Origin: a virus
Lineage: Duplodnaviria > Caudoviricetes
DNA: 59,205 bases
IMG/VR virus record: IMGVR_UViG_3300026026_000125
Coordinates: 1-59,205 of that record
Strand: one strand, 5' to 3'
Positions within the stretch are counted from its first letter, which is position 1, and each line of letters begins with the position of its first letter. The position numbers and the translations under genes are program-made. Shown here in pieces: positions 2,774 through 35,736 of the stretch. The notes under the pieces are model-generated. The model was not told where the DNA came from. It was given only the letters and a program-made list of their open reading frames with translations, and did not search any database.

Positions 2774-2941
2774 ATGAAAAAAATAAAATTATACATCAGA
2801 ACGCCTCTGAATAAAAATCAAGAATATACAATATGTGATGAAATTTCAGATGAAGTTTATGCTTCAACAGGCGTGCAAGGACTTGCAATAGTTATTAAAA
2901 TTGCATTAGAAAATCATATGAACAACATGTCAAAGAACTAA
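2774..2941 (+). CDS. Hypothetical protein
   Basis: 3' part of ORF 2660..2941; ATG at 2774. Confidence 0.6.
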   Translation: MKKIKLYIRTPLNKNQEYTICDEISDEVYASTGVQGLAIVIKIALENHMNNMSKN

Positions 2942-2967
2942 TTTAACTCAAATTTAATAAAAAATAT
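2921..2967 (+). repeat. ~47-bp direct repeat, copy 1
   Basis: AACAACATGTCAAAGAACTAATTTAACTCAAATTTAATAAAAAATAT. Confidence 0.9.
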
Positions 2968-2968
2968 T

Positions 2969-3220
2969 ATGAAAATTTATATGTTTAAAAAAACTGATGT
3001 TTATAAATTATTACCGAATTTTAATTCATTCGATCCTTGTAATTGGAATGAATTAAAATCATTGCCTCTTGAAGTAAAAAAATTAATAAACATATCAAAA
3101 AGACATGATTTAGTCTTTACAGAATATAACTTTATGCTTAGTTTTAATTTAGAAGATAAAGAAGCAAATAATAAATATTATGTTATGTTTATTCCGAACC
3201 CAAAATTTAATATTAAATAA
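2969..3220 (+). CDS. Hypothetical protein
   Basis: 83-aa ORF; its stop is the TAA of the following TAAC box. Confidence 0.7.
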   Translation: MKIYMFKKTDVYKLLPNFNSFDPCNWNELKSLPLEVKKLINISKRHDLVFTEYNFMLSFNLEDKEANNKYYVMFIPNPKFNIK

Positions 3221-3356
3221 CGGTCGGTCATTTACGTCCGTTGGCTATTTGAAAAACAAAAGTTGAATTTAAAACAAAAAATAAATATGGAAACAAAAGT
3301 TGAAATTATAGATGAAGTAGCCAATAGCGTAAATGCCTTATTATCTACTGGCGATT
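3218..3356. repeat. attC-like hairpin site of the solitary cassette (degenerate)
   Basis: TAAC, arms CATTTACGTCCGTTGGCTA / TAGCCAATAGCGTAAATG, then ATTATCTACTGGCGATT, imperfectly complementary to AATCGCTTGCAGCTAAC at 3606-3622. Confidence 0.7.
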
Positions 3357-3607
3357 TTGCAGGAAAATACAAAGGAAATGATAACTCAGGAAATCCAAAA
3401 ATGGAATACCTAAAAAAGATTGTATTACTGACCGATGAAGAATTACGAAAAGAATGTGAAAGTAAAATTTGGCTTTCCGCTTATGCAAGTAATAATTATC
3501 GAAGCGACTATCATTGGCATTGTGACTTCTGTTATGACGAGTGCAAAAGACGTGATAAAGAGGATATTTATAGTGAAGCACATAAGTCGGTGAGTAGTGG
3601 GATGTAA
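3287..3607 (+). CDS. Cassette-borne hypothetical protein
   Basis: ATG at 3287 lies in the hairpin loop. Confidence 0.75.
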   Translation: METKVEIIDEVANSVNALLSTGDFAGKYKGNDNSGNPKMEYLKKIVLLTDEELRKECESKIWLSAYASNNYRSDYHWHCDFCYDECKRRDKEDIYSEAHKSVSSGM

Positions 3608-3619
3608 TCGCTTGCAGCT

Positions 3620-3667
3620 AACAACATGTCAAAGAATTAATTTAACTCAAATTTAATAAAAAAATAT
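3620..3667 (+). repeat. ~47-bp direct repeat, copy 2
   Basis: One substitution and one extra A versus copy 1; begins exactly at the AAC of the cassette end. Confidence 0.9.
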
Positions 3668-4941: not shown

Positions 4942-5097
4942 TTAAAATGGTAATTTAATTTTCATTTTATCAATTAAAGCACTTCGAATAATGCAATTAA
5001 AACTCATACCTGTTTTAAATTTATTGTCTTTCAAATATTTCCATTCATCATCTGAAAGACGAATTCTTAAAGTCTTGTATTTATTAAGTTTATCCAT
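4942..5097 (-). CDS. 51-aa ribbon-helix-helix-like protein at the end of array 1 (not in ORF track)
   Basis: MDKLNKYKTLRIRLSDDEWKYLKDNKFKTGMSFNCIIRSALIDKMKIKLPF: alternating strand TLRIRLS, two helices, IIRSAL. Confidence 0.7.
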   Translation of the reverse strand: MDKLNKYKTLRIRLSDDEWKYLKDNKFKTGMSFNCIIRSALIDKMKIKLPF

Positions 5098-5111
5098 AAA
5101 AGTGCCGTCAA

Positions 5112-5139
5112 AAGTTGCGTATATACATCGTTAGTTGCC
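5112..5139. other. Terminal half-site (attI-like) of array 1
   Basis: AAGTTGCGTATATAC-ATC-GTTAGTTGCC; 14/15 match to the motif ending array 2; no hairpin partner. Confidence 0.7.
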
Positions 5140-5142
5140 ATT

Positions 5143-5958
5143 TTAGGACACAGCTCCGATTATAGGTTCTGCATCAAAGAAAATAACATCTACTTTATTC
5201 TCAATTTTATTAAAAATAGGATATTCTATTTCTTTAACAACCGAACGTTCAATAATCAAATTAGGGTTCTTATGTGCTTTGTGCATCTTCGGTAATGTTT
5301 TTAATTCATCGGCACTAAAAGGCTTTGAGGTTTTCACACGCTTCACATAAGTACCTCGTTTTAATTTAGCTTCTAAGTCATTCCAGTTCACACCCTTTTC
5401 TATCATCATTTTATCTTGCAACTCGTTTGTTTTTAGCTTAAAACATTTTGCATGTCCAAATAATGAATCAGCTAACATTAAAATTGAGTTTCTTGTAGCA
5501 TCATTTTCACGCCACAATAATTGAACACAAGCATCGTGTAATGAAGGTACTTGGTAAATCCTACAATCAAATACAGCAGTTTTATTGTGTGTAGGTAGTA
5601 TTTCTTTACGTTTTTCATTAAAGAAATTCACACATTTTGCAGTAAGTTTTGAAAGTATCTTTTGCTTTTTACCATCATTATAAATGGAGCTTTTACGGTC
5701 ATCGGAATATAGTACCAAAGTTATTTCATCGCTTTGTGTATATCCAACAACTGCGTTAGTTTCTTGTACCAAAAACTTAGTAGTTTCGGTCATTAGTTCA
5801 GTTAATTTCCTATCAAATGGTCTTTCTAAACCTTTTGTCCAGTTGTGAAAGTTATTTCCATCTAATCGAATAATTACGGGCAATGTAGGTATCATTATTT
5901 CAGGTGAGAAATTTTTCTCAGTCCATTTACACCAGTCTCCCATTGTTTCAAAATCCAT
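5143..5958 (-). CDS. tRNA(His) guanylyltransferase (Thg1-like 3'-5' polymerase)
   Basis: IIRLDGNNFH, GYTQSDEITL, FDCR and WRENDATRNSI motifs; likely start MDFETMGD at 5958. Confidence 0.92.
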   Translation of the reverse strand: MDFETMGDWCKWTEKNFSPEIMIPTLPVIIRLDGNNFHNWTKGLERPFDRKLTELMTETTKFLVQETNAVVGYTQSDEITLVLYSDDRKSSIYNDGKKQKILSKLTAKCVNFFNEKRKEILPTHNKTAVFDCRIYQVPSLHDACVQLLWRENDATRNSILMLADSLFGHAKCFKLKTNELQDKMMIEKGVNWNDLEAKLKRGTYVKRVKTSKPFSADELKTLPKMHKAHKNPNLIIERSVVKEIEYPIFNKIENKVDVIFFDAEPIIGAVS

Positions 5959-6000
5959 ACTTTTATATTTTAAATTGTTAATAATTAGATGATTAAAAAC

Positions 6001-6134
6001 GGCAACTAACAACAGGTATAGCAAATAAAGGTGTTCGAGGTATGCAAACGTCCGTACTTCCTATGTTGTTCCGTGTAACTTGATAATTACTTCTTCTAAG
6101 TCCTTTACTTGCCATACCTGCGACCGTTAGGGGC
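6001..6134. repeat. attC-like hairpin site
   Basis: GGCAACTAAC, arms CAGGTATAGCAAATAAAGG / CCTTTACTTGCCATACCTG, GTTAGGGGC. Confidence 0.85.
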
Positions 6135-6166
6135 AAGCATAAGAAACATCCTGCCCCGATGAACCT

Positions 6167-6391
6167 TTAATCATCTTGGTTCATTTCTTTGTTGTCATCG
6201 AGTTCAGGAACATCTTCAACAGTTCCGTATTTTTCGAGTAGAGGTTCAACTTCTGTCCAAATGTTATAACCTTTGTCGAGCAATACAGTAGCATTGTGTA
6301 ACTGTTCTTTTGCCAACATTGCGCCTAATCCACCATTGTTTTTTAGGTTGTAATCTGCGTTTTGTAACGCTTCCATAATTGATACGCTCAT
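6167..6391 (-). CDS. Cassette-borne hypothetical protein
   Basis: 74-aa ORF filling one cassette. Confidence 0.8.
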   Translation of the reverse strand: MSVSIMEALQNADYNLKNNGGLGAMLAKEQLHNATVLLDKGYNIWTEVEPLLEKYGTVEDVPELDDNKEMNQDD

Positions 6392-6414
6392 TTTTTTTCG
6401 TTTTAAAAATGCCA

Positions 6415-6551
6415 GCCCCTAACAATGTATATAGCAAATTGGGGGTTGTTTACAAGTTGCTACATTCGCACTCTTTATTTAGTTTCTGCAAGCTGATAGG
6501 TTCGTGCGTTCTATTCCCCAACTTGCCATATACTTAACATTACCGCCAATA
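6415..6551. repeat. attC-like hairpin site
   Basis: GCCCCTAAC, arms GTATATAGCAAATTGGGG / CCCCAACTTGCCATATAC, degenerate ATTACCGCC. Confidence 0.82.
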
Positions 6552-6824
6552 TTAAGGGAACAACGGCATTTCATTAACTCCCCACCATTGGTCATAATCA
6601 AACGGGTATTCTTTTGCGGGTGGATATTCTTTACATTCTTGTTCCCACGCTTTTAGTTTTTCGTTTTTATGAAATTCCATAGCCATTTCTGCACCTTTTT
6701 TAGTTTTGTGAATACTTATAGTCGCTGCTACACTTTCGTAACAATCAGAATTATAAAGAAATTCATAAACAAATACTGGTGCCAACACAGGCTCAACCGA
6801 AATAGCGGGTTCTGTGGTTTGCAA
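6552..6824 (-). CDS. Cassette-borne hypothetical protein
   Basis: 90-aa ORF whose N-terminus is encoded by the hairpin; start codon uncertain. Confidence 0.7.
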   Translation of the reverse strand: MQTTEPAISVEPVLAPVFVYEFLYNSDCYESVAATISIHKTKKGAEMAMEFHKNEKLKAWEQECKEYPPAKEYPFDYDQWWGVNEMPLFP

Positions 6825-6950: not shown

Positions 6951-6988
6951 AATATATAGGTCTGAATATGACCTCAGACCTATATATT
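6951..6988. terminator. Perfect 15-bp inverted repeat
   Basis: AATATATAGGTCTGA-8 nt-TCAGACCTATATATT. Confidence 0.7.
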
Positions 6989-18093: not shown

Positions 18094-18330
18094 ATGGAAG
18101 AAAAAAAACTTATATGCGTACTGTGTGGGCAGGAATGGGGAGTACAAAACCCATTTACAAACCGATGTGAAAACGAAAAATGTACAGGGTTTTGTACGTG
18201 GGGTTATAAACAGATGAAGCCTGAAAGTTTTTTTATTGATGATAAATGTATTCATGGGTGGGAAAAATCAGATTATTGCGCAGAAAACAATATGTGTGAA
18301 AAATGCAAAACGGCGGGCAATGACCGATAA
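18094..18330 (+). CDS. Cys-rich hypothetical protein
   Basis: 78-aa ORF; its stop is the TAA of the first array-2 TAAC box. Confidence 0.6.
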   Translation: MEEKKLICVLCGQEWGVQNPFTNRCENEKCTGFCTWGYKQMKPESFFIDDKCIHGWEKSDYCAENNMCEKCKTAGNDR

Positions 18331-18461
18331 CGGTGGCCGTATGGTGGCGTACCGGATTTTGAAAAACTAAAAAATCAAGTTACAATGAACGAGAATAAAA
18401 GCACGGAACAATCGCAACTTACCGAACCCGGTATGCACTATACGGCTTGTTATGACCCGTG
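18328..18461. repeat. attC-like hairpin site
   Basis: Arms GCCGTATGGTGGCGTACCGG / CCGGTATGCACTATACGGC with one extrahelical base. Confidence 0.85.
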
Positions 18462-19302
18462 TTTTAATCATGGTTCTCTTTTTTCTGGTATTGGTGGATT
18501 TGATTTAGCAGCAAAATGGATGAATTGGAACAATGTTTTTCAAGTTGAAATAGACAATTATTGTCAAAAATTACTTACTAAAAATTTCCCAGATGTTACA
18601 AGATATAGCGACATACGAGAGTTTGACGGCAAACAATACACCGGAGCAATTGACATTATTTCCGGCGGATTCCCTTGCCAACCATTTAGCAACGCCGGGC
18701 AAAAACAAGGCACAAAAGATGACCGCTATTTATGGCCGGAAATGTTACGAGTTATACGGGAAATACAGCCAATTGCCGTACTTTGTGAAAACGTGCCTGG
18801 AATCGTTGGAATGGAACTCGACAATATGCAGGCTGATTTGGAAAGTAAAGGGTACAAAACACAAGCGTTTATTATTCCAGCTTGCGGTAAAAATGCAAAG
18901 CATAAAAGAGACAGGGTTTGGGTTGTTGCTTACACCGACTGCCAGCGATGGAAAGATGAGCAAAAAGAAAGAACAAAACCTATATATAACAGAAAATGGA
19001 ACGATACGACTAAGGAACAAAGCAGGAACGATCAGCAATGCGGGATTATCAAATCAAGTTTTATTCTTACCAACACCGACAACGCAGGATTCAAAGAACA
19101 ACGGCAGTCAATCGCAAATGGAACGGAATACTTTGCCCCTAAATGCAGTAGCTGGTGGGAAACTGAACCCGGAATGGGTAGAGTGGCTGATGGGATACCC
19201 AATAGGGTGGACAGACTTAAATCATTAGGCAATGCAATTGTACCTCAGATTGCATTCGAGTTGTTTCGTTCAATCGAAGAACTTGTCTTACATGGGGCAT
19301 AA
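18385..19302 (+). CDS. C5 cytosine DNA methyltransferase, main chain
   Basis: LFSGIGG (I), GFPCQPFS (IV), ENV (VI), HKRDRVW (VIII), LGNAIVP (X); motif IX not seen in this frame. Confidence 0.93.
   Translation: MNENKSTEQSQLTEPGMHYTACYDPCFNHGSLFSGIGGFDLAAKWMNWNNVFQVEIDNYCQKLLTKNFPDVTRYSDIREFDGKQYTGAIDIISGGFPCQPFSNAGQKQGTKDDRYLWPEMLRVIREIQPIAVLCENVPGIVGMELDNMQADLESKGYKTQAFIIPACGKNAKHKRDRVWVVAYTDCQRWKDEQKERTKPIYNRKWNDTTKEQSRNDQQCGIIKSSFILTNTDNAGFKEQRQSIANGTEYFAPKCSSWWETEPGMGRVADGIPNRVDRLKSLGNAIVPQIAFELFRSIEELVLHGA
18593..19228 (+). CDS. Nested +1-frame second chain of the C5 methyltransferase
   Basis: 211 open codons ending LNPEWVEWLMGYPIGWT (motif IX-like). Confidence 0.75.
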   Translation: MLQDIATYESLTANNTPEQLTLFPADSLANHLATPGKNKAQKMTAIYGRKCYELYGKYSQLPYFVKTCLESLEWNSTICRLIWKVKGTKHKRLLFQLAVKMQSIKETGFGLLLTPTASDGKMSKKKEQNLYITENGTIRLRNKAGTISNAGLSNQVLFLPTPTTQDSKNNGSQSQMERNTLPLNAVAGGKLNPEWVEWLMGYPIGWTDLNH

Positions 19303-19524
19303 CGTTGACGGTTGTCGAAGTTGCCGACTAAGTAGCACAAAATTATCAATTTACTAAAAACTTAATAAAATGGCAGAAACTTTGAATACCCACGAAAACG
19401 GCATATGAAACGTGCGGGATTAGTAGCACTGCACTATCAAACTATAAAAATGTAAATTAAATGAGCGAACTTACAATAACAGATAAATCCCAAATTGCAT
19501 ATAGCGAGTGTTATACACAGGCAT
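19291..19524. repeat. Double-length fused attC-like site
   Basis: Two loop-like segments in tandem; outer arms do not pair with each other. Confidence 0.7.
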
Positions 19525-19554
19525 TTTTAGTAAATAATTGAAAACTAATATACT

Positions 19555-20556
19555 ATGATAACGAAAAACATTCAAGTACCAACAGGAAATATTTGCGTAA
19601 TGAAAGGCGAAAAGGGTTTTATTGAGTTCCTTTCGATTGGCGATTACGGCAAAGATTCAAATATTAAAGCCGACTTTCTCGGAATAACAAGAGAATTAAA
19701 TGGTGTGCCAAATGGTGAAATAATGTCTTTGAGCGAAAAATGGGTAATAACCATAAGTACACAGTATGGCTGTTCGATGGGTTGTAAATTTTGCGATGTA
19801 CCGAAAGTTGGCAAAGGTTTAAATGCAACATTAAACGACCTTACAAACCAACTTATTGAAGGTTTAAAATTGCACCCTGAAATTGGAGCAACAAAAAGGC
19901 TGAACTTACACTATGCAAGAATGGGTGAACCTACATTTAATTTTGATGTAATTGAACACTCTAAACAACTGCATAAGATTGTAAAACCTTATATTGGTAA
20001 TAGTATGATACACCCAGTAATTAGCACTATGCTACCAAAAGTAAATAAAAGACTTATGGAGTTTTTGAACGAGTGGTGCGACATTAAAAACTACACTTAT
20101 AGAGGTGATGCAGGATTGCAATTTTCGATTAATAGTACTGATGACGAGCAAAGAAATGAAATGTTTAGCGGAAATACGTTACCTATAAATGACATTGCCG
20201 AAATTGGAAGACTGCTACCCGACCCAAAAGGCAGAAAATACGCTTTAAATTTTGCATTAGCTGACAACTATATTGTAGATGCTGAAAAACTTGCAATACT
20301 TTTTAACCCTAATAAATTTATGGTAAAAATTACTCCACTTCATAAAACGCAAAGTTGCGATGATAACGGAATAATAACAACCGATGGTTACGAAGCATTT
20401 ACCCCATATCAAAAAGCAGAAACCGACTTAAAAAACGCTGGATTTGATGTAATTGTATTTGTTCCAAGCTATGATGAAGATTTAGGTTTAATCACTTGCG
20501 GAAATGCTATCTTATCGGGCAGTATTCCAAAAGTTAAATTTACGCAGGTACTTTAA
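19555..20556 (+). CDS. RlmN/Cfr-like radical SAM enzyme
   Basis: ISTQYGCSMGCKFC, MGEP and C-terminal TCG motifs. Confidence 0.85.
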   Translation: MITKNIQVPTGNICVMKGEKGFIEFLSIGDYGKDSNIKADFLGITRELNGVPNGEIMSLSEKWVITISTQYGCSMGCKFCDVPKVGKGLNATLNDLTNQLIEGLKLHPEIGATKRLNLHYARMGEPTFNFDVIEHSKQLHKIVKPYIGNSMIHPVISTMLPKVNKRLMEFLNEWCDIKNYTYRGDAGLQFSINSTDDEQRNEMFSGNTLPINDIAEIGRLLPDPKGRKYALNFALADNYIVDAEKLAILFNPNKFMVKITPLHKTQSCDDNGIITTDGYEAFTPYQKAETDLKNAGFDVIVFVPSYDEDLGLITCGNAILSGSIPKVKFTQVL

Positions 20557-20570
20557 TCGGAGACGGTTTT

Positions 20571-20716
20571 ATGCTTGTGTATAACGAATGGTGGTATGGT
20601 TAGTTGGGGATTAGATACCGACAACCTATCCACCGAGTAGAAACTTAATAAATATAAAGAATGATGAATAACGAACAAAAACCCCAATTAACTATACCAC
20701 GTGTTAGTGGCAGTAC
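20571..20716. repeat. attC-like hairpin site
   Basis: Arms GTGGTATGGTTAGTTGGGG / CCCCAATTAACTATACCAC. Confidence 0.88.
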
Positions 20717-21320
20717 GGATTGGTCAGGGGACAAAAACAGTATTTACAAAACGCTTGGAGCTTCAAATCATACGGATAAAGAACGCCAAAGCGAAGATTA
20801 TTACGCAACCGAACCAAAGGCAGTTGAATTGCTTTTAGATTTAGAAGATTTTACAAACTTGTATGTTTGGGAATGTGCTTGTGGACAAGGGCATTTATCG
20901 GAAGCAATGGAGCAAAAAGGAATAAAAGTAAATTCAAGCGATTTGATTTTAAGAGGCTACGATAAGGCTTATTTATACGACTTTTTAAGCGAAGAAAACA
21001 AAGAGTGGAAAGGACATATTATTACAAACCCGCCTTATAAATTTGCAAAGGAATTTGTTTATAAAGCATTATCAATTGTTCCTGATGGTTGCAAAGTAGC
21101 AATGTTTTTAAAAGTACAATTTTTAGAAGGCAAAGCAAGGAAACAATTGTTTGAGATATACCCACCTAAAATAGTTTACGTTTCAAGTAGCCGATTATTA
21201 TGTGCTAAAAACGGAGAATTTGAACAAATGATTGCTGGCGGAGGTAGTGCAGTTGCTTACGCTTGGTATGTTTGGGAGAAAGGATATAAAGGTAAAACAG
21301 AACTACAATGGTTCAATTAA
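20661..21320 (+). CDS. N6-adenine (amino) DNA methyltransferase
   Basis: DYYATEP, WECACGQG, IITNPPY and YAWYVWEKG motifs. Confidence 0.88.
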   Translation: MMNNEQKPQLTIPRVSGSTDWSGDKNSIYKTLGASNHTDKERQSEDYYATEPKAVELLLDLEDFTNLYVWECACGQGHLSEAMEQKGIKVNSSDLILRGYDKAYLYDFLSEENKEWKGHIITNPPYKFAKEFVYKALSIVPDGCKVAMFLKVQFLEGKARKQLFEIYPPKIVYVSSSRLLCAKNGEFEQMIAGGGSAVAYAWYVWEKGYKGKTELQWFN

Positions 21321-21331
21321 GCACTTTTGTA

Positions 21332-21476
21332 GTATTGCCGCTAACGCTAAGTATATGGCAAGTTGGGGAATAGAAACCACTGCACTATAAAAATAATACT
21401 AACTTAATAAACAGAGATACAAATGAATACACTACAAAAACCCCAATTGCATAAACATAGTGTTAGGCAACGTAAG
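21332..21476. repeat. attC-like hairpin site (probably chimeric)
   Basis: GCCGCTAAC...TTGGGG / CCCCAA...GTTAGGC; outer parts of the arms pair poorly. Confidence 0.8.
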
Positions 21477-21764
21477 TTTTCTATTCTGAAAATACTCATA
21501 AGCCTTTATATCGAAAAAATACATCGCAAAGTTTATGATAACCAATATCGGCAGGATTACAAAATAACATGGAAAGATAAACCAATATTGAAATGGTACT
21601 CATTCCTATTTTGGTTGCTTCCTGATTTTAGAACTTATTTGAAACATTGGAAGCCAATTATAAAAAAGGCTTATAATATCAAAAAACTATCAATTATTAG
21701 ACAGGTAACATTTTGGAATATCCGAAAAGTAAATGTAGAACGCTATTCTTCTTATGTTGCCTAA
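21423..21764 (+). CDS. Cassette-borne hypothetical protein
   Basis: Starts in the hairpin loop and stops at the TAA of TAAC. Confidence 0.7.
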   Translation: MNTLQKPQLHKHSVRQRKFSILKILISLYIEKIHRKVYDNQYRQDYKITWKDKPILKWYSFLFWLLPDFRTYLKHWKPIIKKAYNIKKLSIIRQVTFWNIRKVNVERYSSYVA

Positions 21765-21862
21765 CGGCTGGCGGTATGAAGCGTACCGCATTGTAGAACG
21801 CTTCAAATTATTAACAAGCCTTTCTGCGGTATGCTTTATGACCGCTTGTTAGGCACAGTACT
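21751..21862. repeat. attC-like hairpin site
   Basis: Arms GCGGTATGAAGCGTACCGCA / TGCGGTATGCTTTATGACCGC. Confidence 0.88.
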
Positions 21863-21868
21863 TTTATT

Positions 21869-22093
21869 ATGGCTGAATTGAAAATAGAAAAACATAAATG
21901 GCAACCAAATTTCAAAGATGAAACATGGGTTATTGATAAGCGTAGGCAAGAAGAGTTTCAAATTACCTTAAAACAAGGTGAAGATATTGAAATTGAATTT
22001 ACATGGGATTATGGATATGGTGGGCGTGGGACTGAGCGAATGTATATCAATCCAAAAGTACTAAGGGAGCTACTCGATGAGTTGGGTCTTTAG
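21869..22093 (+). CDS. Cassette-borne hypothetical protein
   Basis: 74-aa ORF filling one cassette. Confidence 0.75.
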   Translation: MAELKIEKHKWQPNFKDETWVIDKRRQEEFQITLKQGEDIEIEFTWDYGYGGRGTERMYINPKVLRELLDELGL

Positions 22094-22125
22094 TATTGTG
22101 CCTAACAAGTGTATATATGCAACTT
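22092..22125. other. Terminal half-site (attI-like) of array 2
   Basis: GTGCCTAAC-AAGT-GTATATATGCAACTT; no hairpin partner. Confidence 0.7.
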
Positions 22126-22147: not shown

Positions 22148-22315
22148 ATGACTATAGTACAATCAATAAGAGTTAATGTAAATATCATTGAAAAACAACA
22201 ATGGTTAAAAGATCATAACATTAACTCCGATGCATTTATGAGAGTGGCATTTGAAGATAAATTTGAAAAAGAATATGGCAAAGTATTTAAATCTAAGCTT
22301 GAGGTTCCTTTTTGA
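22148..22315 (+). CDS. 55-aa ribbon-helix-helix-like protein at the end of array 2 (not in ORF track)
   Basis: MTIVQSIRVNVNIIEKQQWLKDHNINSDAFMRVAFEDKFEKEYGKVFKSKLEVPF. Confidence 0.65.
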   Translation: MTIVQSIRVNVNIIEKQQWLKDHNINSDAFMRVAFEDKFEKEYGKVFKSKLEVPF

Positions 22316-34581: not shown

Positions 34582-35736
34582 TTAATTATCAATTGTTGCT
34601 ATAATTAACCCTGTTTGGGTTTTAAACCACGGAGACATAATTACACGTTCCCCTTTATTGTATTCAATTGCAGAACCTACAACATGTACCCATACAGTAT
34701 CTCCTTCTGAGTAAAGATTATGAGTCCCCCCGCTTAACGCGCCTGTTGTAATCTGTGTATTTGAATCCACTGTTACAATAGTGGCATGACTACCATCGGT
34801 AACATTATAAACTACATCGCCGACTTTTGCCCCCGCCGTAAAACCTGTTCCAATTAAAGTTGTGCTGTCACCGCCTGTACCTGCTGTTATTTTTAATGTG
34901 TCAAGCGTTATTTTTTTATCAATTGCTTTTTTATAGCGATATCGGGTATATGTTGAATCTTTCTTTAAAAACAAATAACTGCTTTGTGGAGTATCAATAG
35001 GTATATCTTCCAGGGTATTTATTTCATCAGTATAGGCATTTGTAATATCAAGTGCCCTACCTTTATATATTATATCTTCGGAAGGGGTATAAATTGAATA
35101 TGTATTGTCAATAGTTGCGACAAGGACTCCTATTTTAACTGAATCGGAAGTAGCAAAAGTATCATCACTCCCTCCTGATAATGCCGTAGTTGTTAACTGT
35201 GTTGCACTATCAATGCTTACTATGGTAGCATAACTATCATCAGTGGTATTTCTTATAAGCATTCCTGGCTTGACGGTACCGTCAAGAAAGGTGCCGGTAG
35301 AAATTTTAAGTACAGTACCGGAGCCACCGACTGCTGCCGTCACAGTTTTTGTTTGCAGCGTAAATGTATCATCTGTAAAACTGGAATACCAATATGATTT
35401 CGTCACCCCTGATTTAACAATTCGTATAATACCGGTAGGAGGAGTATCTGTAGCAATATTTGCAGTACATTGAACAGTGGTGCTGTCTTTCACATTCGCG
35501 GTATTGTGAGAAGTTAAAATATCCTTATAATCCCCCACCTGGTAAAATTCATTTGATGTATTACTGAATTCCTCTAAAAGAGCAATTACGTCCTGTAATG
35601 TTTGCAAATCTGCTTCAGCCTGGACATAAGCATCCTGTGTTACCCTTAATTGTGGATAAAGCCTGGATAATTCAGATATATTTTTGATATATGTTACCTT
35701 TTTAGAGGTTGTTTCGATTACTACAAACCTTTTCAT
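34582..35736 (-). CDS. Structural/decoration protein with repeated beta domain
   Basis: NxTDxSxATIVxxDSxTQxTTxALSGG occurs twice. Confidence 0.6.
   Translation of the reverse strand: MKRFVVIETTSKKVTYIKNISELSRLYPQLRVTQDAYVQAEADLQTLQDVIALLEEFSNTSNEFYQVGDYKDILTSHNTANVKDSTTVQCTANIATDTPPTGIIRIVKSGVTKSYWYSSFTDDTFTLQTKTVTAAVGGSGTVLKISTGTFLDGTVKPGMLIRNTTDDSYATIVSIDSATQLTTTALSGGSDDTFATSDSVKIGVLVATIDNTYSIYTPSEDIIYKGRALDITNAYTDEINTLEDIPIDTPQSSYLFLKKDSTYTRYRYKKAIDKKITLDTLKITAGTGGDSTTLIGTGFTAGAKVGDVVYNVTDGSHATIVTVDSNTQITTGALSGGTHNLYSEGDTVWVHVVGSAIEYNKGERVIMSPWFKTQTGLIIATIDN

Follow-up and report, generated by a model that had tools for sequence, protein, structure and literature searches.

A Hairpin at Positions 6001–6134 of a Tailed-Phage Genome as a Probable attC-Type Recombination Site of Reversed-Polarity Cassette Arrays

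Introduction

The IMG/VR record IMGVR_UViG_3300026026_000125 is a linear stretch of 59,205 nucleotides (nt), which was analysed over its whole length and is referred to here as the window. At positions 6001–6134 it carries an imperfect hairpin, read from the minus strand, which raises the question of what such a structure does in a phage and to which of its neighbouring genes it belongs. Integrons are seen as bacterial devices, in which recombination of the bottom strand fixes the orientation of the genes relative to one promoter. An earlier note on this DNA had claimed that the hairpin is part of cassette arrays whose genes run antisense to the canonical polarity of attC, the recombination site of integron cassettes. 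In our assessment the best explanation, which we consider probable, is that the hairpin is an attC-type recombination site of cassette arrays with reversed gene polarity and that these arrays are served in trans. The record has an estimated completeness of 76% and about 30% G+C, and the host of the phage is probably a Bacteroidota bacterium.

Anatomy and Folding of the Sites

The hairpin at 6001–6134, termed site F, is a full attC-type site. On the plus strand it consists of the box GGCAACTAAC (6001–6010), the arm CAGGTATAGCAAATAAAGG (6013–6031), a 70-nt loop, the arm CCTTTACTTGCCATACCTG (6102–6120), and the box GTTAGGGGC (6126–6134). The arms are 19 nt long, and both of their mismatches are A:C on the plus strand and G:T on the minus strand, which is the coding strand. 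The same distinction, G:T on the coding strand and A:C on the other, had been drawn in the earlier note for site F and for site A (20576–20713), and direct reading agrees with it in both cases; the arms of site A hold two internal G:T pairs on the plus strand, which is coding there.

At least seven attC-type sites are present in the window, forming two clear arrays (array 1, 5109–6552, minus strand; array 2, 18320–22125, plus strand) and a small atypical third array (2921–3665). Five full sites were placed in the first two arrays by reading and alignment; a sixth full site is located at 18320–18459, and a degenerate composite one at 19296–19520. Arrays 1 and 2 both close, at the end towards which they are transcribed, with a TAAC box and one arm that has no partner, and these two half-sites are alike. 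The arrays are made of single-gene cassettes bounded by attC-type sites and contain no integrase. They thereby correspond to clusters of attC sites lacking an integrase (CALIN), defined by at least two close attC sites and no integrase, as array 1 comprises two full sites and the half-site, and array 2 four full sites, the composite and the half-site. The sites themselves have the build expected of attC, namely imperfect inverted repeats of the order R''-L''...L'-R' with RYYYAAC/GTTRRRY cores and a length of 57–141 nt, as judged by reading and with our own scanner, the length range being taken from passages in the literature.

The scanner requires TAAC...GTTA and a stem, and scores G:T and A:C alike. 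It detects five sites in the window, compared with a mean of 0.3 and a maximum of 2 in twenty block shuffles. In the window and 63 viral loci it returns 57 candidates, 49 of which have typical geometry: an (A/C)TTG-N4-TAAC box, a 3–6-nt spacer, the arms with a loop of about 25 or about 62 nt, a 0–3-nt spacer, and a GTTA-N4-C(A/T)G box. The arms of typical viral sites often contain GTATRGCAAGT and ATTTGCTATAC, and exactly two G:T pairs occur at fixed positions of the stem, with the G in the 5' arm, a feature which is kept across 100 sites. Among 83 distinct sites, an arm pairs with its own partner at 14.1 of 16 positions and with a foreign arm at 7.2; as the sites had been chosen for their stems, this comparison is no more than descriptive. 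Furthermore, the hairpins of the viral loci are better conserved than their genes.

The two strands of these sites differ in stability. With DNA parameters, the coding strand is the more stable one at all five full sites compared in the window (−15.6/−12.3, −16.9/−14.8, −12.1/−9.1, −14.2/−12.0, and −26.0/−21.4 kcal/mol), and with RNA parameters at four of the five. When sites are oriented by spacer asymmetry alone, which is a criterion of this analysis, the oriented strand is more stable with DNA parameters at 44 of 45 viral sites (mean 2.61 kcal/mol) and at 46 of 55 bacterial sites (mean 2.27 kcal/mol). The earlier note had treated better folding of the non-coding strand as an outcome that would speak against it, and in the viral set it is the coding strand which folds better at all sites but one. 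A passage in Loot et al. (2017; PMC5371416) gives the bottom strand of attC as 2.1–3.1 kcal/mol more stable than the top strand and about 1,000 times more recombinogenic.

Gene Polarity in Phage and Bacterial Arrays

A two-word pattern taken from the arms has more than 120 matches in bacterial genomes among the matches listed, nearly all of them in Bacteroidota. In Lutibacter litoralis JCM 13034 (L196), a gene for a 393-amino-acid (aa) tyrosine recombinase (L196:2945–4126) is followed by an array (L196:4277–18258) of at least 10 cassette open reading frames (ORFs) on the same strand, between which lie 11 sites of the family found in the phage. Read on the gene strand, these sites show a box, a 2–3-nt spacer, the arms, a 5–6-nt spacer and a box, with A:C mismatches, which is the reverse of the phage arrangement; the genes are on the strand opposite to site polarity in 10 of the 11 cassette intervals. 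L197, the other bacterial locus with a recombinase-like gene alongside, does not form a tidy array.

The contrast was quantified by taking, for each site, the longest open frame that either strand contains within 800 nt. Among 45 viral sites, gene and site have the same polarity in 38 cases and opposite polarity in one, with six ambiguous, whereas large bacterial contigs give one same, 21 opposite, and three ambiguous (n = 25; Fisher p 3.9e-14 for the two groups). A test by intervals agrees: in viral loci the longest ORF is on the site strand in 24 of 26 intervals, on the opposite strand in none, and absent in two, while four bacterial loci (L073, L086, L088, and L163) have it on the opposite strand in 12 of 12. 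In the cultured Polaribacter phage P12002L, all six sites detected by the scanner are on the gene strand.

We conclude with high confidence that the phage genes occupy the strand opposite to that used by bacterial genes of the same site family. Going by predicted folding, this strand matches the better-folding, bottom-type strand of the bacterial arrays. Since the same family in Bacteroidota chromosomes carries its genes on the other strand (21 of 25 sites), the description of the cassette genes as antisense to the usual polarity, given in the earlier note, now denotes an empirical contrast and not only an analogy. Of the tests applied, this comparison with hosts, which the earlier note had not foreseen, lends its reading the strongest support.

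The Cassette Unit and Its Homology Breaks

Read along the coding strand, a cassette unit extends from the C of TAAC through spacer, 5' arm, loop, 3' arm, spacer, GTTA-N4-C(A/T)G, and the gene to (A/C)TTG-N4-TAA, so each hairpin is carried along with its downstream gene. The box that follows the hairpin is complementary to the TAAC box beyond the next gene, and not to the box preceding its own hairpin. The downstream TAAC box agrees with the reverse complement with at most one mismatch in seven at 20 of 48 sites and with at most two at 36 of 48 (4% and 17% for control boxes of other sites), while at none of 49 sites does the own 5' box come within two mismatches in the seven variable positions. 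The usual single mismatch places CAG opposite TTG, which is again a G:T pair on the coding strand.

Array 1 illustrates this arrangement on the minus strand. It begins with the full site E (about 6412–6552), which has a degenerate 5' box (TAAT, 6542–6539) and a 5' arm (6535–6516) identical to that of site B in array 2; a 20-mer of this arm is present in 13 viral contigs. Site E is followed by a cassette gene of 74 aa with no family match (6167–6391), by site F, and by a cassette gene for a Thg1-like tRNA-His guanylyltransferase of 271 aa (5143–5958; PF04446, E 1.2e-25; phrog_4717, E 3.3e-67). The array closes with the attI-like half-site at 5109–5141, which on the coding strand reads ATGGCAACTAAC and then GATGTATATACGCAAC and has no partner arm, and whose box is the reverse complement of the box following site F at six of seven variable positions. 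Here as in array 2 the genes point toward the half-site, in keeping with the gene direction given in the earlier note. As candidates for attI, the half-sites of arrays 1 and 2 (box and one arm) resemble each other and those of other phages, and their function is putative. They show a TGTWTATAYG-like motif, which by eye is also seen beside the first junction of the Lutibacter array.

Comparison with related phages locates the ends of the exchanged segments. Over the radical-SAM gene of array 2, two viral loci (L001 and L002) match the window at about 90% identity, and both can be aligned up to the C of TATAAC (20585/20586). The similarity ends there: L001 goes on to a bare half-site, and L002 to another hairpin and other cassettes. 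In array 1, the locus L054 shares 6126–6542 at 94% identity, a segment limited to hairpin E, the 74-aa gene and its GCCCCTAAC; it has a different gene upstream and, in place of hairpin F, a half-site downstream. Hairpin E therefore moves with its downstream gene. In 400 alignments between viral loci (all locus pairs, length at least 150 nt), 35 ends are no more than 12 nt away from the C of a TAAC box, and no end comes that close to the G of a GTTA box, although many of the loci are interrelated and the counts therefore do not represent independent events. That crossovers would lie at the TAAC side had been predicted beforehand, with the GTT ahead of each gene as the contrary outcome, and the alignment ends follow the prediction. 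In contigs of four sequencing runs compared at 88% likeness, no clean joint at a TAAC box was found, and many short pieces derived from other organisms accumulate on the hairpins, which speaks neither for nor against the reading. The stretch is contained only in its probable source run, with small shares in the others, and no RNA run is listed as containing it.

Proposed Mechanism and Alternative Explanations

The mechanism towards which we lean, with somewhat better than even confidence, is single-stranded recombination of the sense strand by a host enzyme. A tyrosine recombinase supplied in trans would recombine the folded sense strand, strand exchange would take place in the TAAC box, and cassettes would be gained and lost at the half-site, that is, at the promoter-distal end of the phage operon. 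The best candidate is a host Xer/IntI-like enzyme such as the one encoded beside the Lutibacter array. The enzyme, the single-stranded substrate and present-day activity are parts of this mechanism which we infer. In a passage of Qi et al. (2023; PMC9892861), IntI1 recombines one attC site of P12002L from the strand called bottom, and not from the top strand. Within the phages, a Pfam scan of 30 window ORFs returned no recombinase, and none of the tyrosine type was found in the complete genomes G001, G002, G021, and P12002L. Two small ORFs beside the half-sites gave nothing in an NCBIfam search, and the ORFs that follow half-sites in nine other viral loci encode different proteins rather than one family, two of them (L002 and L053) being alike. 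A single-sequence search with the Lutibacter recombinase found no close relative in viral contigs. Because no recombinase is seen in the window and the Lutibacter enzyme is IntI1-like while remaining below curated cut-offs, a host enzyme acting in trans is our best inference and not a result.

Several observations weigh against the proposed reading. A six-frame scan of the window, which by estimate is 76% complete, detects no tyrosine recombinase (PF00589), and such an enzyme occurs in one of 19 site-related viral records, where it is not beside sites found by strict scan. A Y1 transposase (PF01797) is likewise absent from the window, and one of the five records searched is positive. The Lutibacter recombinase and IntI1 share 32% identity, but about 45 residues at the IntI1-specific insertion are missing from the former, which scores below the curated cut-offs of NF040815 (206 against 220 bits) and TIGR02249 (196 against 265 bits), so that the term canonical, as used here, depends on a family-specific comparison. 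Small bacterial contigs are mixed in polarity (14 same, nine opposite, and seven ambiguous; n = 30) and may include binned phage fragments. Minimum free energy z-scores of single hairpins against shuffles are modest (coding strand −1.68 and −1.40; other strand −0.89 and −0.64), and the case therefore rests on the site family and not on one fold. Extrahelical bases, the classical strand marker, do not discriminate, with 28 bulged in 5' arms and 27 in 3' arms. The orientation of the compared sites by spacer asymmetry and the kinship of the aligned loci, both mentioned above, belong here as well. The locus L052 (minus strand, about 2418–2580) matches hairpin E and its 5' leader (window 6388–6542) at 94% identity but carries an unrelated gene from the ATG on, and no matching TAAC box was found downstream of that gene; its junction represents either a second mode of exchange or a damaged cassette. 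According to the earlier note, every array has a full hairpin upstream of its first gene and only a half-site after its last. This stands for array 1 and for the distal end of array 2, but not for the third array, where a copy of the half-site, and not a full hairpin, lies ahead of the first gene. Finally, recombination of the phage sites, the strand used in it and the transcription of the arrays are putative.

A different account of the hairpins is that they work mainly as RNA, as sense-strand stem-loops which set translation starts, processing or stability, while the genes are shuffled by homologous recombination between similar hairpins. Homology-driven shuffling of this kind has been proposed for the promoter stem-loops of T4-type phages. 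The pairs on the mRNA strand are G:U-compatible and RNA-parameter energies range from −28 to −47 kcal/mol; start codons (18385, 20661, and 21423) lie in loops, the TAAC box supplies a stop codon through its TAA, and in L052 the hairpin and leader are kept ahead of a different gene, all of which suits such a role. In bacterial chromosomes, however, the family is antisense to the genes at 21 of 25 sites, and a sense-RNA role therefore cannot define it. Moreover, the homology breaks occur at one box only, and the boxes are complementary across each gene and not within the hairpin, which homologous exchange does not predict. As the main function an RNA role is improbable; it could exist as a secondary function and might explain why the polarity is reversed.

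The cassettes might instead be moved by a phage protein of another kind, for instance a nuclease not recognised as such, an HUH protein or a small DNA-binding partner, which cuts single-stranded DNA at TAAC next to the hairpin and makes the host recombinase irrelevant. The ends of IS200/IS605 elements are strand-specific hairpins beside a fixed tetranucleotide, a likeness which counts in favour of this view, as do the many window ORFs with no family match and the lack of an integrase even in the four complete genomes named above. Against it stand the Y1 results just given, the presence of one hairpin per cassette in place of left and right ends, and the diversity of the ORFs adjoining half-sites between phages. 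The site family is, in addition, common to bacterial arrays beside a tyrosine recombinase, and IntI1 recombines a P12002L site in the passage cited (Qi et al., 2023; PMC9892861); we judge a phage enzyme of this sort to be quite unlikely. We give equally little credence to the idea that the arrays are fossils, captured pieces of host arrays which no longer recombine and whose polarity reflects which pieces were expressible. Degenerate outer sites (TAAT in site E, the composite at 19296–19520, and the ATTA box in array 3) and the absence of an encoded enzyme from the record would fit fossils. Yet the cassettes that follow a shared TATAAC differ between phages with about 90% identity over the radical-SAM gene, the same cassette recurs at 94% identity in different contexts, the hairpins are better conserved than the genes, and conservation of the G:T positions extends over 100 sites. 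Since host cassette genes are on the other strand, simple capture would furthermore give antisense genes.

Relation to Known Systems

Phage CALINs, including the P12002L array with a methyltransferase cargo, have been published (Qi et al., 2023; PMC9892861). Like the window, P12002L has integrase-less rows of attC-bounded single genes in a lytic-type Bacteroidota phage, with DNA methyltransferases among the cargo, NinG-like and DnaA-like genes as in the window, and six sites of the same build by the scanner. The passages of Qi et al. (2023; PMC9892861) on P12002L report the presence of attC sites, IntI1 activity and "divergent directions," and they describe no bottom-strand genes, hairpin-first units or shared half-site. 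Within a limited literature search, nothing was found on reversed gene polarity of phage attC arrays, on the hairpin-first cassette unit or on a shared terminal half-site. Among cultured phages, a relaxed blastn search with site E gave a single 25-nt match, in Cellulophaga phage phi18:1, while megablast and blastn searches of the region against the phage collection returned nothing. In phi18:1 (L198, 3954–4260) an arm-plus-box word lies inside gp30, and the gene is followed by a complementary AACCCTAAC box and a short perfect hairpin; by its sequence, the gp30 locus is a relic of the same system in a cultured phage.

The chromosomal arrays of Bacteroidota, such as that of Lutibacter, share with the phage arrays the consensus of boxes, spacers, and arms, the two fixed G:T positions and the cassette-wise complementarity of boxes, and they have loops of about 125 nt. 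The Lutibacter array differs in that a recombinase gene heads it and its putative attI is at the promoter-proximal end. Compared with classical integrons (e.g., In2 of R100), the phage sites are alike in their RYYYAAC/GTTRRRY cores, the imperfect hairpin, the more stable bottom strand and the junction inside the core, and the boxes flanking one gene are complementary as in complete integrons. Unlike these, the phage arrays have no IntI and apparently no Pc promoter, and the nearest host enzyme lacks the IntI-specific insertion. In complete integrons the genes are on the top strand and read from Pc at the attI end, but those of the phage are on the G:T, bottom-type strand and point to the half-site. 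The strand asymmetry of the phage sites comes from two G:T/A:C positions and unequal spacers, in contrast to the clear extrahelical bases of classical sites; on the gene strand the 5' arm of the aadA1 attC of plasmid R100, used as a control, contains two extra bases, a position equivalent to the 3' arm of the bottom strand, as in classical sites. The arrays do not conform to the IS200/IS605 type, as the window has no PF01797 match and only a single hairpin occurs per unit. T4-type phages have promoter stem-loops known as mobile regulatory cassettes, in which a hairpin followed by an early promoter precedes small accessory genes in variable regions, and for which exchange by homology has been proposed. 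A hairpin ahead of each gene is common to both systems, but the breaks within one tetranucleotide box argue against plain homology in the phage arrays, and the sites belong to an attC family which is common to bacterial arrays.

The same kind of site, common to the likely hosts, is thus used the other way round in viruses, where the hairpin precedes the gene and new genes would join the phage operon at its far end. Should the arrays be active, lytic phages would trade anti-restriction and nucleic-acid-modifying genes (methyltransferases, Thg1-like, and radical-SAM genes) through a host enzyme, and site orientation would offer an easy way of distinguishing phage cassettes from host ones in metagenomes. 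The results further suggest that Bacteroidota have a large integron-like system, which appears to depend on a recombinase that would escape standard integron criteria, as the Lutibacter enzyme and array probably would. IntegronFinder 2.0 reportedly found few complete integrons in Bacteroidota. A more far-reaching idea, which we put forward tentatively and hold to be rather doubtful, is a mirror-image integron in Bacteroidota phages, that is, a cassette pool on the recombining strand serviced by a host Xer/IntI-like recombinase. In that case the hairpin would be exposed whenever the operon is transcribed or replicated and would thereby be highly recombinogenic, and in the mRNA it would form a start module for each gene. 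Phage and host pools would then use one enzyme yet be unable to express each other's cargo, which would place a built-in barrier between two gene pools with a common recombination system.

Further Features of the Window

Array 2, on the plus strand, follows the arrangement given in the earlier note at its distal end, where the sites start at 20576, 21335, and 21755 and the half-site lies at 22096–22125, but it starts further upstream than that note implies, with the full site H (18320–18459; TAAC 18328–18331, GTTA 18449–18452). Site H precedes a cassette gene for a C5 cytosine DNA methyltransferase (18385–19302), which was named from an FSGIGG motif read in the sequence and not from the family-library scan; its ATG lies in the loop of site H and its stop TAA within the TAAC box at 19300–19303. 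The composite site (19296–19520), which was read by eye and missed by the scanner, separates it from the radical-SAM gene (19555–20556; 333 aa; phrog_24834, E 5.5e-156), for which there are 50 related viral loci. Site A (TAAC 20582–20585, arms 20590–20609 and 20682–20700, GTTAGTGGCAG 20703–20713) follows, and its loop contains the annotated ATG of a DNA methyltransferase gene (20661–21320; phrog_799, E 9.3e-61). Site B (21335–21472; TAAC 21342–21345, GTTAGGCAACG 21462–21472) likewise holds in its loop the ATG of the next cassette gene (21423–21764; 113 aa, no family match), whose stop lies in the TAAC box of site C. Site C (21755–21858) belongs to the short-loop class and on the coding strand has a single G bulged out of its 3' arm; it is followed by an ORF of 74 aa with no credible family match as the last cassette gene (21869–22093). 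The attI-like half-site at 22096–22125 consists of TTGTGCCTAAC and then AAGTGTATATATGCAAC and has one mismatch in seven against the reverse complement of the box following site C.

The ATGs at 18385, 20661, and 21423 sit in hairpin loops, and these three cassette ORFs read through the 3' arm. Phage homologues of the methyltransferase encoded at 20661 align only from residue 11–42 onward. The TAA of the TAAC box forms the stop codon of three ORFs (18328–18330, 19300–19302, and 21762–21764). The half-site of array 2 is followed by a 55-aa ORF (22148–22315, plus), which like the 51-aa ORF after the half-site of array 1 (4942–5097, minus) ends in PF; the latter has a weak match to a NikA-like ribbon-helix-helix protein (E 0.005).

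The small third array (2921–3665, plus) consists of a duplicated half-site with leader around two small genes and of one full site between them. The two 44-nt copies (2921–2964 and 3620–3663) are 98% identical, and the full site at about 3217–3345 has the degenerate 3' box ATTA instead of GTTA.

Elsewhere in the window are tailed-phage genes, including those for a P22-type portal protein, DnaB, and NinG, and an ORF of 2,449 aa. The Pfam scan of 30 ORFs matched NinG, DnaB, a deaminase and the portal protein, among others, and many ORFs of the window are without a family match. The record G001, a complete 93-kb site-bearing phage which contains the locus L057, has three IS200-type Y1 transposase genes (34883–35245, 62197–62376, and 64753–65115), and the other four records searched have none. 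Upstream of site E, a 90-aa ORF with an uncertain start (6552–6824, minus) may be a further, degenerate cassette. Beyond it, upstream of array 1, a perfect 15-nt inverted repeat with an 8-nt loop (6951–6988) resembles a terminator and lies between divergent early units.
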